A stretch of 64,000 nucleotides of DNA from Bacteroidia bacterium (GTDB taxonomy: Bacteria > Bacteroidota > Bacteroidia > NS11-12g > UBA9320): assembly GCA_965216465.1 (NCBI GenBank), contig CBDCFW010000006.1:853244-917243 (forward strand), given 5' to 3'. Shown piece after piece: positions 1 through 56,752 of this stretch. Positions within the stretch are counted from its first letter, which is position 1, and each line of letters starts with the position of its first letter. The position numbers and the translations under genes were made by a program. Under the pieces are notes generated by a model that did no database searches, was not told the DNA's origin, and saw nothing but the letters and a program-made list of their open reading frames with translations.

Positions 1-3000
1 AAAAACTGATACCAATCCCGAAAACATTCTTTGTTTAACCTTCACAGAAGCAGCAGCTACTTCATTGCGCAATAGACTATATCAGTTTATCGGTTCTGCT
101 TCTCACCGGGTAAATATTTTAACTTATCACGGTTTTTGTAATCAGGTGATACAAGAGAACAAAGATTTGTTTGGGGTTCAGAATTTAAATCCGGTATCCG
201 AGCTTGAAGTAATTGAATTGCTCAAAGAAATTATTGATGAACTTCCCAACTCAAGCGTCCTTAAAAGATTTAGAGGCGACGTTTATTATGACTCCAATAA
301 TCTTAAAAAATTATTCTCACTTCTAAAGAAAGACGACATCAGCCCGCAAGATATACAACAAAGAGTGGCCGAGTATCTAGAAGAATTAAAAAATGATGAA
401 AGCTTCTATTACAAAAGAAAGTCGGGGAACTTTCAAAAGGGCGACTTTAAAATTGACCATTTTAACAAGGAGAAAGAAGCACTTGACAAACTCATTGAAG
501 CAAGCAGATTGCTCCATGTATACGAGCAAAAACTAGCCCGTATTCAATGTTACGATTTTGATGATATGCTGAAATGGGTTTTGAACATGTTTAACAAAAA
601 CCCAGACCTTCTTTTAAATTATCAAGAGCAGTTTCACTATTTCTTAGTCGATGAGTACCAAGACACGAATGGAGTTCAAAACAAACTTTTATATGATCTA
701 ATATCATACTGGGACAATCCAAATGTATTTGTCGTTGGAGACGATGACCAATCAATTTATAAATTTCAGGGAGCGAATGTCGAGAATATATATCAGTTCT
801 ATAAACGTTATGAGCAGTATGCTCAACTCATAGTCTTGGATGAAAACTATCGCTCAAGTCAAAATATACTGGATGGGAGTAACAGCATTATTTCTAAAAA
901 CGAAGAACGGTTGGTAGGCAAAGTACCTGGCCTAACCAAAAACATCAAAGCATCAAATCCAGAAGTAAGCTCAATAACTCAAGCCGTAAAAGTCGTAGAA
1001 TATCCAAATGCTTTTCAAGAAATTGTGAGTATTACTTCGAAGATTAAAAAACTGAAAACAGAAGGAGTCAGTTATAAAGATGTGGCTGTGCTGTATCGAA
1101 ACCATGCCCAGAGCGATGAACTAATCCGTTTTTTGGAAGCAGAGCGAATCGACTTTAACGTTACACGAACACAAGATGTCCTCGAAGTGATAATTGTTAA
1201 ACAGCTCAATGACTTTTTAAACTACCTCAAGCTAGAAGACAAGAAGTTAGACTCAGGTCAACACTTGTTATTTTCAATCCTGAATTTTAATCATTTCAAA
1301 CATCTTTCAGCATTCGACATTGCCCGCATCAGTCGTTACTGCTACACTTATAAAAAAGAAGGAGGATGGAGAACGGTTCTGAACCAACTTCCAGGTGAGC
1401 TCAATATTTCAGACGCAGCAACCAAAGAGCTAAATCAATTTGTATCGGATACTGAGTATTGGTTAAAAGAAATGCACAATTTAACCTTACAAGTTCTGGT
1501 TGAAAAGGTAATGTCTAAGATGGGATTTGTTTCTCGCGCACTTGCAGGAAGCGATGCCACCTTTGAGATGCAGTGTCTTAAAACGTATTTCAATTTCTTG
1601 AAAGAAGAAACCTCACGTAATCCTTACCTAAGCTTGTCTGAGTTTTTGGTGAAGGTTGATTTATTGATGAACAACGGAATCGGGTTAAAATTAAATCGAG
1701 TTGTGCATGGATTGAATGGCGTTAATCTCATGACTGTACATGGATCTAAAGGATTGGAATTTGACCATGTGTTCTTATTGGGTTGCACAGAAAAGAAATG
1801 GGAAAAAGATCGAACCAGTCTTCCTTTCGGTTTAAATAAAATTTGGGCAGGTGAGCCAAAGTCGGCTACAGAAGAAGAAGCCCGTCGATTATTTTATGTT
1901 GCCTTAACCCGAGCTAGAAAAGGAATTGAAGTTAGCTATGCTTTGAAAAATGAGAAAGACAAAGACATGGCTAAAAGCGTTTATGTTGTTGAGCTCGAGG
2001 AAAGCAATGCTGCAGTAATTTCAAAGGAGATGGCCAAAGAAGATGATATGCTACACTTCTTCGATTTTATGCTAAGTTACAATGATGAATCTTATGTTGA
2101 TTTGGTCAATCAAGATTTTGTTAAGGCAATTCTTGAAGACTTTAGATTGAATGCAACTAATCTGAACAATTACCTCAAGTGTCCGGTAACATTCTTTTAT
2201 CAAAACATTATAAAGGTTCCATCTGCGAAAGGTGAAAACATGGCCTTTGGGTCTGCAGTTCATTATGCCTTAGAAGGATTATTTAAGCCAGATATAGAGC
2301 TTAACAATCCAACCGCTATGAAAGAAATGCTTACAACCCGTTTCAAAAACTATGTGCACAATAACAAAGAGTCATTTACAACTGAAGCCTTAGAAAGAAG
2401 ATTGCATTATGGAGGAGAGATTTTAAGAGGATACTATGATCAGTATAGTGATGATTTGATAAGTAATAATCAAGTTGAAACGGAGGTGTATTTCAACACC
2501 AGCGAGGTTGATGGTGTACCTATAAGTGGGGTGATAGACAAAATGATAGTCAAAGACAAGGTAGTTCATGTTGTTGACTATAAAACGGGTAAGTATGAAA
2601 CCGGAAGGAAGAAAGTAAGCCCTCCATCGGTCTTAGATTTAGAAAGCCAAGAGGAGAATTATGAGAAGAAGCATGGTGGAGACTACTGGAGACAAGTGTT
2701 GTTTTATAAAGCACTAATTGAAAGCGATAAGCGTCTAAACTATGACGTGTTATCTGGAGAAATAGACTTCATTGAACCTCACAAAGAGGAATATCAAAAA
2801 GCTAAGATTATAATTCAAGATAATGAATACCAGTTTGTTAGAGCTCAAATCAAACAAGTGTATCAACGTATTATGAATATGGAATTTACCGAAGGCTGCA
2901 ACGAACACGACTGCCAATGGTGTAACTTCAACCGGTATTATCTAGGTAAAAAGCGTTACGAGCACGACGACCTTTTATCAACTCAATCCGTTGATATGGA

Positions 3001-3010
3001 AGAAAGATGA
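1..3010 (+). CDS. UvrD/PcrA-family DNA helicase fused to a C-terminal PD-(D/E)XK RecB-like nuclease with a Cys cluster. 5'-partial: the frame is open from window position 2.
   Basis: The upstream in-frame translation ...LCLTFTEAAATSLRNRL is UvrD motif Ia. DEYQDTN (motif II) and LDENYRS are present. The C-terminus carries VDYKTGK...EGCNEHDCQWCNF, an AddB/Cas4-style Cys cluster next to a nuclease motif. The ORF track starts it at a TTG at 65, but there is no stop upstream. Confidence 0.8.
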   Translation, partial: KTDTNPENILCLTFTEAAATSLRNRLYQFIGSASHRVNILTYHGFCNQVIQENKDLFGVQNLNPVSELEVIELLKEIIDELPNSSVLKRFRGDVYYDSNNLKKLFSLLKKDDISPQDIQQRVAEYLEELKNDESFYYKRKSGNFQKGDFKIDHFNKEKEALDKLIEASRLLHVYEQKLARIQCYDFDDMLKWVLNMFNKNPDLLLNYQEQFHYFLVDEYQDTNGVQNKLLYDLISYWDNPNVFVVGDDDQSIYKFQGANVENIYQFYKRYEQYAQLIVLDENYRSSQNILDGSNSIISKNEERLVGKVPGLTKNIKASNPEVSSITQAVKVVEYPNAFQEIVSITSKIKKLKTEGVSYKDVAVLYRNHAQSDELIRFLEAERIDFNVTRTQDVLEVIIVKQLNDFLNYLKLEDKKLDSGQHLLFSILNFNHFKHLSAFDIARISRYCYTYKKEGGWRTVLNQLPGELNISDAATKELNQFVSDTEYWLKEMHNLTLQVLVEKVMSKMGFVSRALAGSDATFEMQCLKTYFNFLKEETSRNPYLSLSEFLVKVDLLMNNGIGLKLNRVVHGLNGVNLMTVHGSKGLEFDHVFLLGCTEKKWEKDRTSLPFGLNKIWAGEPKSATEEEARRLFYVALTRARKGIEVSYALKNEKDKDMAKSVYVVELEESNAAVISKEMAKEDDMLHFFDFMLSYNDESYVDLVNQDFVKAILEDFRLNATNLNNYLKCPVTFFYQNIIKVPSAKGENMAFGSAVHYALEGLFKPDIELNNPTAMKEMLTTRFKNYVHNNKESFTTEALERRLHYGGEILRGYYDQYSDDLISNNQVETEVYFNTSEVDGVPISGVIDKMIVKDKVVHVVDYKTGKYETGRKKVSPPSVLDLESQEENYEKKHGGDYWRQVLFYKALIESDKRLNYDVLSGEIDFIEPHKEEYQKAKIIIQDNEYQFVRAQIKQVYQRIMNMEFTEGCNEHDCQWCNFNRYYLGKKRYEHDDLLSTQSVDMEER

Positions 3011-3068
3011 CCAAGTAGGGCCAAATTTCTTCAAAACAATACGTACTTTTGCCTTGTTTTTTACAAAC

Positions 3069-3632
3069 ATGGAATTAGCAGACGTAATAACCGTATATTC
3101 TGAAAAGACGCCGAATCCGGAGTCTATGAAGTTTGTGGCAAACAAGATGATTTTGCCAAATGATAGTGTTGACTTCAGAACAAAAGAAAATCTTGACGAA
3201 TGCCCAATGGCAAAAGAGTTGTTTGAATACGACTTTGTAAAAGGAGTGTTTATCATGAACAACTTTGTTTCGGTAACAAAAAAAGCTGACTACGAATGGT
3301 TCGACATTATTCCTCAGCTTAAGAAATTTGTTCAAGACTACCTTGAAGCCGAAAAGCCAATCATTGAGAAAAAAGAGGAGTTAACTGAAGAAGAAGAAAG
3401 TGAAGTAGTGATGAAAATCAAACAACTTTTGGAGGATCATGTTAAGCCAGCAGTTGAAATGGATGGTGGAGCGATTGATTTTAAAAGCTTCGATGAAGGA
3501 GTTGTAACAGTTACTATGAAAGGTTCTTGTAGCGGATGCCCTTCAAGTACCTTAACGCTTAAAGCTGGAATTGAAAACCTACTAAAAAGAATGATACCTG
3601 AGGTTGAAGCTGTTGAAGCTGAAGCCGGATAA
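3069..3632 (+). CDS. NifU/Nfu-type Fe-S cluster scaffold (Nfu_N domain + NifU C-terminal CxxC domain)
   Basis: YSEKTPNPESMKF matches the Nfu_N signature. GSCSGCPSSTLTLKAGIENLL is the NifU-like CxxC motif. ATG at 3069 is preferred over the 2991 start because it does not overlap the upstream gene. Confidence 0.75.
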   Translation: MELADVITVYSEKTPNPESMKFVANKMILPNDSVDFRTKENLDECPMAKELFEYDFVKGVFIMNNFVSVTKKADYEWFDIIPQLKKFVQDYLEAEKPIIEKKEELTEEEESEVVMKIKQLLEDHVKPAVEMDGGAIDFKSFDEGVVTVTMKGSCSGCPSSTLTLKAGIENLLKRMIPEVEAVEAEAG

Positions 3633-19225: not shown

Positions 19226-19329
19226 TGGAACAAATTTGGCTTTAAACTTCAAGGCTTTCGAAAATTATTTTTTTATTCGATTGAAATAATACTACACTTG
19301 CAGTCGAATTAAGTTCTTTAACGAAATTT

Positions 19330-19430
19330 TCTTATCAAGAAAAGCCGAGGGAATTGGCCCGATGACGCTTTAGCAACCTACCTCCGGTAAGGTGCTAACT
19401 CCAATCTCACATATGTGGGAACAGATAAGT
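19330..19430 (+). promoter_or_regulatory. SAM-I (S-box) riboswitch aptamer
   Basis: CTTATCAAGAAAAGCCGAGGGAATTGGCCCGATGACGC...GCAACC...GGTGCTAACTCC...CAGATAAG matches the SAM-I consensus. This covers the P1 CUUAUC/GAUAAG closure, the GAGGGA-UGGCCCGAUGA core and GGUGCUAAxUCC. Confidence 0.75.
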
Positions 19431-19471
19431 AGTGAATTGTAACAAATCGTGAGAACACGTTAAGATATACA

Positions 19472-27482: not shown

Positions 27483-28109
27483 TTATTCTTCTGAATTTCC
27501 TTCTTCGCCTTCAGCTCCTTCTTCTCCTTCTTCTTCTTCATCAAGACCATCAGCAGCACTTTTAGCGGCTCTCGTCACAACACAAGAAACGATTGAATTT
27601 GAATCAGAATCAAGCAAATCAAGCTTATCAACTGAGATATCCTTAACTTTAACACTCTTACCAATTTCAAGATCGTTAATATCAACTTCTATAAATTCAG
27701 GTAAGTCAGAAACAAGTCCTGAAACTAATAACTTTTTGATCTTCAATTGTAGCTTACCACCGGCTCTTACACCTGGAGAGTTTCCTACGATTTTTACAGG
27801 AACGTGGATGCTAACTGGTTGAGCAGTATCGATTTCGTAAAAATCTGCGTGAATAATATCTTCAGAAACAGGGTGGAATTGAAGCTCTTGAATTTTAGCA
27901 AGCTTCATGTCGTTACCTACTTCAATTTTAACCAAGTATGTATTTGGTGTATATACCAAGTTTTTGAAGTCTGCTTGGTATACAGCAAAATGCTTGTTTT
28001 CTCCACTTCCGTAGATTACGCAAGGCACTTTACCTTCTTTTCTTAATTGTTTGGTGCTTGACTTTCCTAGTCCAGCTCTTTCAGCACCTTTTAATGCAAT
28101 TACTTTCAT
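27483..28109 (-). CDS. rplY: 50S ribosomal protein L25 / general stress protein Ctc, with an acidic C-terminal tail
   Basis: MKVIALKGAERAGLGKSSTKQLRKEGKVPCVIYG. Confidence 0.85.
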   Translation of the reverse strand: MKVIALKGAERAGLGKSSTKQLRKEGKVPCVIYGSGENKHFAVYQADFKNLVYTPNTYLVKIEVGNDMKLAKIQELQFHPVSEDIIHADFYEIDTAQPVSIHVPVKIVGNSPGVRAGGKLQLKIKKLLVSGLVSDLPEFIEVDINDLEIGKSVKVKDISVDKLDLLDSDSNSIVSCVVTRAAKSAADGLDEEEEGEEGAEGEEGNSEE

Positions 28110-29228: not shown

Positions 29229-29258
29229 ATTTTGGCCTGCAAAAGTAATATTCATTTT

Positions 29259-55365: not shown

Positions 55366-55383
55366 TTACTTTTGCGGCCATTC

Positions 55384-55470
55384 GGAGAGATGCCAGAGCG
55401 GTCGATCGGGCTACCCTGGAAAGGTAGTGTACCCTTACGGGTACCGAGGGTTCGAATCCCTCTCTCTCCG
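55384..55470 (+). tRNA. tRNA-Ser (anticodon GGA), class II with a long variable arm
   Basis: GGAGAGA acceptor, anticodon stem CTACC/GGTAG with loop CTGGAAA (anticodon GGA), long extra arm, GTTCGAATC T loop and G discriminator. Confidence 0.85.
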
Positions 55471-55478
55471 CAAGTAAA

Positions 55479-55506
55479 GCCAATCCCTAAGAGGATTGGC
55501 TTTTTT
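55479..55506 (+). terminator. rho-independent terminator after tRNA-Ser
   Basis: aaGCCAATCCctaagaGGATTGGCtttttt. Confidence 0.6.
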
Positions 55507-55509
55507 ATT

Positions 55510-55845
55510 GAGCCTGTGCTAAGCTCGCTTAAGCACAGGCTCATAAAAAAGACATTGAGCACGCAGTGCTATGGCTTTACTTGTTAGGCCACCCCTTAGG
55601 GAAAAAGCGACTGCAAGGAGCTTAATCCCCATAAGCACAGGCTCATAAAAAAGACATTGAGCACGCAGTGCTATGGCTTTACTTGTTAGGCCACCCCTTA
55701 GGGAAAAAGCGACTGCAAGGAGCTTAATCCCCTTAATCACAGGCTCATAAAAAAGACATTGAGCACGCAGTGCTATGGCTTTACTTGTTAGGCCCTCCTT
55801 ACGGAAAAAGCAATGGGGGTTAATGAAGGAGGTTAATCCCATCTC
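55510..55845. repeat. Perfect 11-bp-stem hairpin followed by about 3 tandem copies of a 102-bp repeat. Copies 1 and 2 are near-identical and copy 3 diverges in its last third.
   Basis: The unit is cacaggctcataaaaaagacattgagcacgcagtgctatggctttacttgttaggccaccccttagggaaaaagcgactgcaaggagcttaatcccc(a/t)taa(g/t), starting at 55534, 55636 and 55738. The hairpin GAGCCTGTGCT-n11-AGCACAGGCTC at 55510..55542 contributes its right arm to the first unit. Confidence 0.85.
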
Positions 55846-55987
55846 GCTTCGAGTATGTGACTAATTAAAAGACAAAAGCACGTCCTGCTACACCTCCTAA
55901 ATTACCCCCTTTCCCTTCATTTCAATATATTTGAAGTTGTGCTGCAAAAGCACCTATAACCATTATTTAATCGACACCATTATTAAT

Positions 55988-56752
55988 ATGCTTTCAAGAG
56001 TAATACTTGTGTGCTTCATCTTTGTCCTTTGGTCTATAGGCTCAGGATATTACTATGTCTGCCACGTCAAGCAGGCATGTGCTAATCCCTTGCAAACCGA
56101 GATCGTTTTACAAGAACCAATCCAATTCACTATTTCAGAAGAAAAGCCAACTTTAGGCACTGACTTCGAAACTTGGAAGAATGAAATTCTAGCAAAACAA
56201 AACAACGATAACCAACTCCAAATTGTAGGTCTGTATTCTTCTGCAGAAGTGAATAATTCAATACATCGAGATTTGGGTATCGCACGAGCTGTTCAAGTAC
56301 AAGAAGCGTTAGGCATCAGCGTAGAAGAGGTAATTATAGAATCTCGACAAACTGAAATCGACTGGTCTAAAACTTATGCTGAAGCCATAGAGTTTGAATA
56401 TGTAATTAAAAATAAGAACGTAATTGAAAACGATTTTGGAGCGGTTCTTATATTAAGTCCATATGCCGTTCCTGAAGAAGTGCCTGTAGATATTATGAAC
56501 TATTTAAAAGAAATCTGTAAACATGCAGAAAACCAGGTGATTGATATTGTTGGATATAGCCCAGAATTAAACGATGTCGCAGAAAACTACAGTCAAGGGT
56601 ATCACTCTGCAAACTTGATTCGTGATATCTTCGCTGAGCAGGGATATCCATCAGAATTGTTAAACGTAGCTTCCGAAGGTTCAAGAAGAGATAATTTGTC
56701 CATAGATTTTATGCCAGATTCCGTTAACCTTGTTGAAGTAATAATTAGATAA
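55988..56752 (+). CDS. Membrane-anchored hypothetical protein with degenerate OmpA_C-like segments
   Basis: N-terminal TM helix (MLSRVILVCFIFVLWSIG). IVGYSPELNDVAENYSQGYHSANLIRDIFAEQGYP...ASEGSRRDN resembles the peptidoglycan-binding OmpA_C pattern. An alternative upstream start exists at 55931. Confidence 0.45.
   Translation: MLSRVILVCFIFVLWSIGSGYYYVCHVKQACANPLQTEIVLQEPIQFTISEEKPTLGTDFETWKNEILAKQNNDNQLQIVGLYSSAEVNNSIHRDLGIARAVQVQEALGISVEEVIIESRQTEIDWSKTYAEAIEFEYVIKNKNVIENDFGAVLILSPYAVPEEVPVDIMNYLKEICKHAENQVIDIVGYSPELNDVAENYSQGYHSANLIRDIFAEQGYPSELLNVASEGSRRDNLSIDFMPDSVNLVEVIIR

Follow-up and report, generated by a model that had tools for sequence, protein, structure and literature searches.

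The 3′ end of a tRNA-Ser gene is the integration site of NBU2 in Bacteroides (PMC5704250, Table 1 therein), and elements that have kept the attachment sites attL and attR but have lost their integration and transfer genes are known as cis-mobilizable elements (CIMEs), which take part in tandem accretion (PMC5704250). Here we describe a short tandem repeat array located 3′ of a tRNA-Ser(GGA) gene of a Bacteroidia bacterium (Bacteroidota; Bacteroidia; NS11-12g; UBA9320). The array lies in a stretch of 64,000 nucleotides (assembly GCA_965216465.1, contig CBDCFW010000006.1, positions 853,244 to 917,243 of the forward strand) that was analysed as a whole and that we call the window. We propose, with a probability of roughly 0.55, that the array is a CIME-like remnant, that is, the integrase-less attachment (att) region of a tyrosine-integrase element at tRNA-Ser(GGA) in which a segment made of two modules, A and B, has been amplified locally.

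The locus shares with CIMEs and other decayed att-flanked remnants its position at a tRNA 3′ end, the lack of an integrase and a patchy distribution among relatives. As in CIMEs, a direct repeat of the tRNA 3′ end stands at the far side, perfect in a homologous locus of a relative (L018), with only a putative, decayed copy in the window. Described CIMEs are kilobases long, whereas the element described here measures about 180 bp per unit, is gene-less and partly tandemly amplified, and no parent element was identified. NBU2-type elements and prophages have the same class of target gene and occur in the same phylum (PMC5704250), and in viral contigs the 17-mer core of the site is flanked by convergent tyrosine integrases. 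Unlike NBU2-type elements the locus contains no integrase or mobilisation gene, and the likeness noted here is one of target.

Anatomy of the array

Three 102-bp units lie head to tail at 55530-55851, 3′ of the tRNA-Ser(GGA) gene, its terminator and a hairpin with an 11-bp perfect stem (Table 1). Tandem Repeats Finder reports 55530-55811 as the sole strong array of the whole window (period 102, 2.8 copies, 97 % matches, score 529), and a repeat search placed in-register copies at 55530-55631, 55632-55733 and 55734-55835 with ungapped identities of 100 %, 99 % and 71 %. Once aligned with gaps, the third copy is a complete unit with indels, net about 7 nt longer, and we therefore count three units. 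A 39-mer derived from the unit occurs three times compared to 0.00 expected. These results agree with a preliminary description of the window, made from the sequence alone, which had reported a local tandem array of 2.7 to 3 copies of a 102-bp unit following the tRNA-Ser terminator and the perfect hairpin; the coordinates confirm both of the latter, and the small palindromes noted within the units (AGCACgcaGTGCT and CCCTTAGGG) are both present.

Each unit consists of modules A and B. In module A the trailer flanks of the tRNA recur in inverted orientation around a different hairpin, and the module is predicted to form a terminator on the minus strand. Module B is a 48-nt piece, CACCCCTTAGGGAAAAAGCGACTGCAAGGAGCTTAATCCCC, ending in GGAGCTTAATCCC, which mimics the tRNA T-arm. 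While module A is near-identical across the three units, with a single position setting A of unit 3 apart from A of units 1 and 2, module B is identical in units 1 and 2 but has diverged in the unit at the edge. The final 57 nt of copy 3, taken on the minus strand, match copies 1 and 2 at all but one position and the remainder is diverged with indels. The T-arm mimic of unit 3 runs on as ...GGAGGTTAATCCCATCTCGCTTCG, and the att core in units 1 and 2 is truncated to TTAATCCCC. In a semi-global alignment with free end gaps, 55828-55851 matches the 3′ half of the tRNA with a z-score of 3.1, a score reached by 9 of 2000 shuffles.

The plus-strand tRNA trailer (module T1) reads CAAGTAAAGCCA-ATCC-ctaaga-GGAT-TGGCTTTTTTATTGAGCCTGTGCT, and the minus-strand reading of each unit ends in CAAGTAAAGCCAT-AGCAC-tgc-GTGCT-caATGTCTTTTTTATGAGCCTGTGCT. 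The two have 12 nt in common on one side and 21/22 nt on the other side, and the hairpins enclosed by these flanks differ. Aligning the trailer with the reverse complement of module A of unit 1 (A1) gave a score of 41 (z 13.6). A terminator scan found a hairpin of 11 pairs plus T run at 55476-55503 in the trailer and three terminator-like sites on the minus strand, one per unit (55570-55558, 55672-55660 and 55774-55762).

The arms of the perfect hairpin, GAGCCTGTGCT (55510-55520) and AGCACAGGCTC (55532-55542), extend to 19-nt arms with 89 % complementarity and are part of a longer inverted repeat (about 50 nt) formed by the tRNA trailer and unit 1. Since T1 and A1 share their flanks, the perfect hairpin is the apex of this inverted repeat and marks the junction of two convergent terminator modules. 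The preliminary description had regarded the array as seeded by the hairpin: the hairpin is real, but the idea of simple seeding is wrong.

The array is non-coding DNA. An open reading frame (ORF) of 107 codons runs antisense across it because the period is divisible by three; its product has no homologue among 5.8 billion proteins and belongs to no Pfam family, in keeping with the artefact suspected from the outset. Likewise the architecture is not that of a CRISPR, as had been stated, since units 1 and 2 are 99 % identical over their full length and unique spacers are consequently absent.

A homologous single unit in a relative

A search with the whole window element (nhmmer) against 1.2 Mb of fetched loci gave a single match, collinear, at 1875-2035 of L018 (E 7e-4), and the element is known from these two loci only. 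The upstream TatD protein of the window is 70 % identical to its closest relative in the protein collection, and the TatD of L018 is 70 % identical to that of the window. In L018 the tRNA-Ser gene is followed by a terminator-bearing trailer, by an inverted copy of the trailer flanks around a different hairpin and then by a B-like block, GGTTCCCTTTCCGGGAAAAACCGACCACGGGGAGGTTAATCCCTCTCTCTCCGC, whose final 17 nt repeat the tRNA 3′ end perfectly and in direct orientation. L018 hence carries a homologous single unit bracketed by perfect 17-bp direct repeats. The 17-mer, AATCCCTCTCTCTCCGC, is found twice in this locus compared to 0.01 occurrences expected. One copy belongs to the tRNA and the other, 183 bp further downstream, closes B; this downstream copy aligned to the tRNA gives a z-score of about 11.

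Module B of the window aligns with L018 1993-2032 at 31 of 37 positions (score 41, z 8.6, 0 of 1000 shuffles as good). This match is the best in that locus and lies above those in every other fetched locus, and the B-like block runs directly into the perfect copy of the tRNA 3′ end, to which the decayed GGAGGTTAATCCCATCTCGCTTCG of the window corresponds by alignment. The junction between A and B is identical in both genomes, and the inverted repeat formed by the trailer and A is significant in each (z 13.6 in the window and 8.6 in L018). Both elements are predicted to fold well (-56.5 kcal/mol, z -9.1 in the window; -42.7 kcal/mol, z -4.6 in L018) into a common four-way junction. Its outer stem is formed by the start of the trailer with the end of A, and the other arms are two small hairpins and one long arm in the centre. 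We conclude from the alignments that the two elements are homologous. A perfect 17-bp direct repeat such as that of L018 is a hallmark of site-specific integration.

Tyrosine integrases beside the 17-mer

The scans of public collections reported in this study used exact patterns only. In viral contigs such a scan found AATCCCTCTCTCTCCGC in at least 120 contigs, and among the matches listed the 17-mer often lies within about 130 nt of a contig end. We looked at the large ORFs adjoining the core and found that nine of the ten tested encode tyrosine integrases (PF00589). All nine point at the core and stop 4-132 nt short of it. The target site is thus a recognised integration site of tyrosine recombinases, and the repeat unit appears to be akin to the att region carried by elements that target tRNA-Ser, a relationship that the preliminary description had missed together with the inverted repeat of about 50 nt and the T-arm mimics.

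This geometry bears on the terminators. With the integrase convergent on the tRNA, a minus-strand terminator is needed beside the tRNA trailer: a tRNA 3′ end that faces a convergent integrase calls for two back-to-back terminators after the tRNA, and T1 together with A matches this arrangement. As in ordinary pairs of convergent intrinsic terminators, T1 (+) and A (-) each consist of a hairpin and a U run, and in L018 they stand between tRNA-Ser and a convergent hxlR gene. Unlike such pairs, T1 and A share flanks of 12 nt and 21 nt around hairpin cores that differ, and the window has no convergent gene and holds the minus-strand terminator in triplicate.

One further case of tandem att cores was seen in a viral contig from IMG/VR (L040). 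Its positions 2930-3165 contain two partial tRNA-Ser 3′ ends 186 bp apart and no full tRNA (ARAGORN). The case is an independent one, its sequence showing no relationship to that of the window.

The insertion compared to other lineages

We compared the locus with six lineages (L001; L002/L003; L006; L019; L021; L023-L028; 11 loci fetched). The order TatD, tRNA-Ser(GGA), OmpA-like protein, HHH protein and CTP-transferase is common to the window and the six lineages, L019 having a different fourth gene. From the tRNA to the ATG of the OmpA-like gene the window measures 516 nt (ATG at 55988, placed by alignment to the protein of a relative). For comparison, the distance is 12-20 nt in L001, L002, L006 and L019, where the sequence was read, and according to the gene tables the gap from TatD to the OmpA-like gene is equally short in L003, L021 and L023-L028. 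The intergenic sequences of L001, L002, L006 and L019 hold neither a terminator nor repeats, T1 is not present in relatives without the insertion, and the element was not found in L021-L029, which had been fetched to seek further copies. By this comparison of sequences the array region is an insertion between the tRNA-Ser gene and the OmpA-like gene.

The 136 nt at 55852-55987, from the decayed att core to the ATG of the OmpA-like gene, likewise have no counterpart in the intergenic sequences read in the relatives. A perfect -7 box (TATATTTG) and, at about 55940-55954, a GTGCTgcaaaAGCAC hairpin lie within them, and their resemblance to the unit is weak and not significant. We also asked whether the right flank (55843-55987) contains one more, degenerate unit or B′ in inverted orientation, and rejected this because the scores of 25-29 are not significant compared to a shuffle mean of 20.8 (sd 3.8).

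The distribution of the element is patchy: it is present in L018, a different trailer occurs in L029, and the six lineages above lack the element. In L029 the same tRNA-Ser(GGA) is followed at 2360-2502 by this different terminator-bearing trailer, and the contig ends 130 bp later. The L029 trailer may be another insertion at the same site, and the tRNA-Ser site looks like a hotspot. As the preliminary description had noted, no integrase or transposase stands nearby: the ORFs between 50 and 64 kb of the window include none that was recognised as such, and the gene order on either side is as in the relatives.

A model for the origin of the array

We hypothesize that a tyrosine-integrase element integrated at the T-loop and 3′ end of tRNA-Ser(GGA), so that all sequence 3′ of the crossover point would have been brought in by the element. 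T1 would then be a replacement trailer and terminator for the tRNA, borne by the element. Module A would be the minus-strand terminator of a former gene running toward the tRNA, a place taken in intact elements by the integrase, and module B would be the arm adjoining the distal att core, comprising the T-arm mimic followed by the displaced tRNA 3′ end. An internal deletion would have removed the coding body and left about 180 bp of gene-less, CIME-like sequence between att repeats, an element that L018 would retain as a single unit with its perfect 17-bp repeats.

In the lineage of the window, the 102-bp A+B segment would subsequently have been duplicated to three copies by unequal recombination or slippage, and the edge copy may have been homogenised in A only, keeping its decayed att core. 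That A is uniform in all units and B is diverged only in the edge unit is what unequal exchange usually produces when it homogenises the interior of an array. With minisatellites the array shares a repeat length of about 100 bp, the head-to-tail order and inner copies that are nearly identical next to a diverged one at the edge, and the variable minisatellite is the closest of the three options (besides a structured RNA array and a REP/BIME-like element) put forward in the preliminary description. Length polymorphism between strains is the defining property of a variable number tandem repeat, and the array of the window is known from one sequence.

Today T1 would stop transcription of the tRNA, and the three terminators on the minus strand would keep antisense transcripts from reading into it. 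The OmpA-like operon appears to have a promoter box of its own. An operon cut off from the promoter of the tRNA needs its own promoter, and the TATATTTG box is likely the replacement promoter of the operon separated from the tRNA by the insertion.

Several observations weigh against this origin. Exact-pattern scans revealed no viral contig with module B, the 120 loci bearing the att core gave no match to the window element (nhmmer), and an autonomous element with module B beside an integrase was found in none of these searches, a weak negative given that they were exact-pattern and small-scale ones. In the window the att core survives only decayed in unit 3 and truncated in units 1 and 2. Module B as an entire decayed 3′ half of tRNA-Ser, variable arm and T arm included, was tried and is not significant beyond the T-loop and acceptor part (z 0.2-1.1). 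The A-B junction common to the window and L018 may mean that the small element is an entity itself and not the product of two independent deletions, and blocks conserved between genera whose TatD proteins are 70 % identical could reflect selection for a function. Finally, two carrier loci give no statistical power for covariation.

If the proposed origin holds, a tRNA integration site keeps evolving after the genes of the element are lost: the scar gives the tRNA a terminator, separates the downstream operon from the tRNA promoter and can later expand as a minisatellite. The explanation is mostly an ordinary one, an att-flanked remnant turned minisatellite. A scar of about 180 bp common to two genera (TatD 70 % identical) suggests either mobilisation in trans or selection. 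The locus also carries a warning for annotation, as repeat arrays beside tRNA genes can yield spurious ORFs and can mimic arrays of non-coding RNA.

Alternative explanations

One alternative explanation for the array is a neutral tandem duplication of native intergenic DNA, in which the trailer and terminator evolved within the lineage and a 102-bp piece was duplicated by slippage without any mobile element. The 99 % identity of units 1 and 2 is what a recent duplication would give, and no integrase was recognised nearby. The unit was also found only here within the window, with no other copy in the remaining 63.5 kb (blastn-short, and nhmmer on the masked window), and the wider searches point the same way. 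The pattern CTTTTTTAT(N)GAGCCTGTGMT had 11 single matches among genome contigs, in a collection that lacks the home genome, all in unrelated taxa and near the estimated chance level. Two metagenome scans with patterns from the trailer module and from module B were negative, as were four viral scans for element-specific patterns, and the 519-bp insertion had no blastn match among phages and plasmids. Still, we consider a neutral duplication unlikely, for it leaves unexplained the L018 homologue with its perfect 17-bp repeats of the tRNA 3′ end, the T-arm mimic ending every unit and the absence of the sequence from six other lineages.

It is also conceivable that the element still moves. At about 180 bp it would be a miniature integrative element devoid of genes and mobilised in trans by an integrase specific for tRNA-Ser, and the array would have arisen by repeated integration or recombination at the tRNA. 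The perfect 17-bp flanking repeats of L018, the A-B junction and four-way-junction fold that are the same in two genera and the patchy distribution among relatives are consistent with this idea. We find it distinctly improbable, as a unit of the window contains neither T1 nor an intact core and the units are hence not copies of a whole element, circles as small as about 180 bp recombine poorly, and no partner integrase was identified. The claim that the 180-bp element works as an "att-only" miniature integrative element, moved in trans, kept across genera and amplifiable at its target, strikes us as equally doubtful. If it were true, such an element would be the counterpart, for site-specific recombinases, of a miniature inverted-repeat transposable element (MITE).

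A third possibility is that the units are three sibling genes for small RNAs (sRNAs) on the minus strand, each with a body of about 50 nt and its own intrinsic terminator, and possibly antisense to the 3′ end of tRNA-Ser. On the minus strand each unit does hold a terminator-like hairpin followed by a U run, A hardly varies in contrast to B, a hairpin of B has one compensatory pair between the window and L018 (AAGC/GCTT compared to AACC/GGTT), and 17 nt of the tRNA have a perfect complement on the minus strand of L018. Looking for promoters of the TAnnTTTG and sigma-70-like types, the two covered, we found TAnnTTTG neither on the minus strand of 55472-55990 nor on either strand within the units, and no sigma-70-like site. 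No Rfam family matches, and minus-strand folds of single units are no better than shuffles (z -0.06 to -0.5); single units folded on the plus strand reach a z-score of about -2.3. Moreover the first terminator would halt transcription ahead of copies 2 and 1, and the L018 element simply lies in the 3′ region of the convergent HxlR gene, which there takes the place of the OmpA-like gene beyond the element. With three sequences as input RNAalifold gave one or two compensatory pairs. The stem concerned is palindromic and folds as well on one strand as on the other, and three distinct sequences provide no real power for covariation. A minus-strand G-U stem spotted by eye (GCUCCUU/AAGGGGU) is not conserved in L018 and was not picked by RNAalifold. 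We therefore regard sRNA genes as very unlikely, and the structured RNA array that the preliminary description had envisaged is not borne out by the Rfam, promoter and folding results.

The last explanation, that a dispersed palindromic element akin to repetitive extragenic palindromes (REPs), bacterial interspersed mosaic elements (BIMEs) or MITEs sits here as a mosaic of inverted modules, draws on the extragenic position after a gene end, the imperfect palindromes, the alternating orientation of the modules and the 12 occurrences of AGCAC/GTGCT in 519 bp (about one is expected from the window-wide frequency), but is the least probable of all, and the REP/BIME-like nature entertained earlier is likewise not supported, given that the sequence stands once in 64 kb, the part of the home genome that was searched, and is not dispersed even by the sensitive search of the flanking 63.5 kb, has no copies in the exact-pattern genome, metagenome and viral scans or the phage and plasmid blastn, comes with no visible RAYT or transposase, has its sole homologue at the same tRNA and forms a unit far longer than a REP. 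Unlike a MITE, moreover, the trailer/A inverted repeat is not terminal on the right, where B lies outside it, the flanking repeat is a tRNA 3′ end and not a short target-site duplication, and other copies are lacking.

Features of the locus and side observations

Table 1. Features at and around the tRNA-Ser(GGA) array, in coordinates of the window
Feature	Position	Strand	Remarks
TACTTTTG, Bacteroidota-type -7 promoter box	55367..55374	+	10 nt upstream of tRNA-Ser
tRNA-Ser(GGA), intact	55384..55471	+	ARAGORN; Rfam RF00005, 49.4 bits
Trailer module T1	55471..55520	+	CAAGTAAAGCCA, terminator hairpin 55476-55503 + U run, then ATTGAGCCTGTGCT
Perfect hairpin	55510..55542		11-bp perfect arms; 11-nt loop that pairs further with itself
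107-aa ORF	55519..55842	-	artefact of the 102-nt period
Unit 1	55530..55631		A1 55532-55583, B1 55584-55631
Intrinsic-terminator-like module of unit 1	55545..55583	-	CAAGTAAAGCCAT-AGCAC-tgc-GTGCT-caATGTCTTTTTT; again at 55647-55685 and 55749-55787
T-arm mimic GGAGCTTAATCCCC	55617..55630	+	mimics tRNA T-arm GAGGGTTCGAATCCC, loop 2 nt shorter; ends B1; again at 55719-55732
Unit 2	55632..55733		99 % identity to unit 1
Unit 3, edge copy	55734..55851		B′ module diverged, with indels
Decayed direct copy of tRNA-Ser T-loop + acceptor 3′ end, GGAGGTTAATCCCATCTCGCTTCG	55828..55851	+	read as attR-like core relic
-7 box TATATTTG, perfect	55926..55933	+	54 nt upstream of OmpA-like gene (ATG 55988)

The octamer upstream of tRNA-Ser (TACTTTTG) is repeated at 29240-29247, 12 nt upstream of tRNA-Gln. 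The motif TAnnTTTG, the Bacteroidota -7 box, is strongly under-represented in the window, with 43 sites compared to 78 +/- 8 expected. In the case of tRNA-Gln of this genome, the downstream gene follows after 47 nt and no terminator lies between the two. The D-arm and anticodon stem of tRNA-Ser(GGA) come in two types, one found in the window, L001, L018 and L022 and the other in L002, L006, L019 and L029.

The Rfam model RF04351 (plastid psbI-rps4 3′ UTR) matches antisense 3′ halves of bacterial tRNA-Ser with at most 45.5 bits, below its gathering score. Matches are located at 55450-55470 (-) in the window and at 1813-1859 and 1976-2042 (-) in L018. The model apparently contains antisense trnS and the matches would then be artefacts. 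This also applies to the weak RF04351 match that alone hints at module B being the 3′ half of a tRNA. A degenerate tRNA, or the 5′ half of one, was also considered for the minus strand of the unit and rejected: minus-orientation alignments reached z-scores of at most 1.0, and an E-value search of Rfam gave no tRNA match.

Elsewhere in the window, the C-terminal sequences of large secreted proteins resemble Por_Secre_tail, the sorting domain of the type IX secretion system (T9SS), which Pfam marks on the syntenic homologues of relatives. This resemblance, the Bacteroidia label of the relatives and the TAnnTTTG boxes ahead of the two tRNA genes all fit a member of the Bacteroidota. A SAM riboswitch (RF00162) at 19329-19431 (+) scores 83.9 bits (gathering score 44.4) and is unrelated to the array. 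A 9-nt repeat, TCCTTCTTC, is present in 4.7 copies at 27498-27539, where it overlaps a run of 13 CTT at the 3′ end of the minus-strand ORF 27483-28109.

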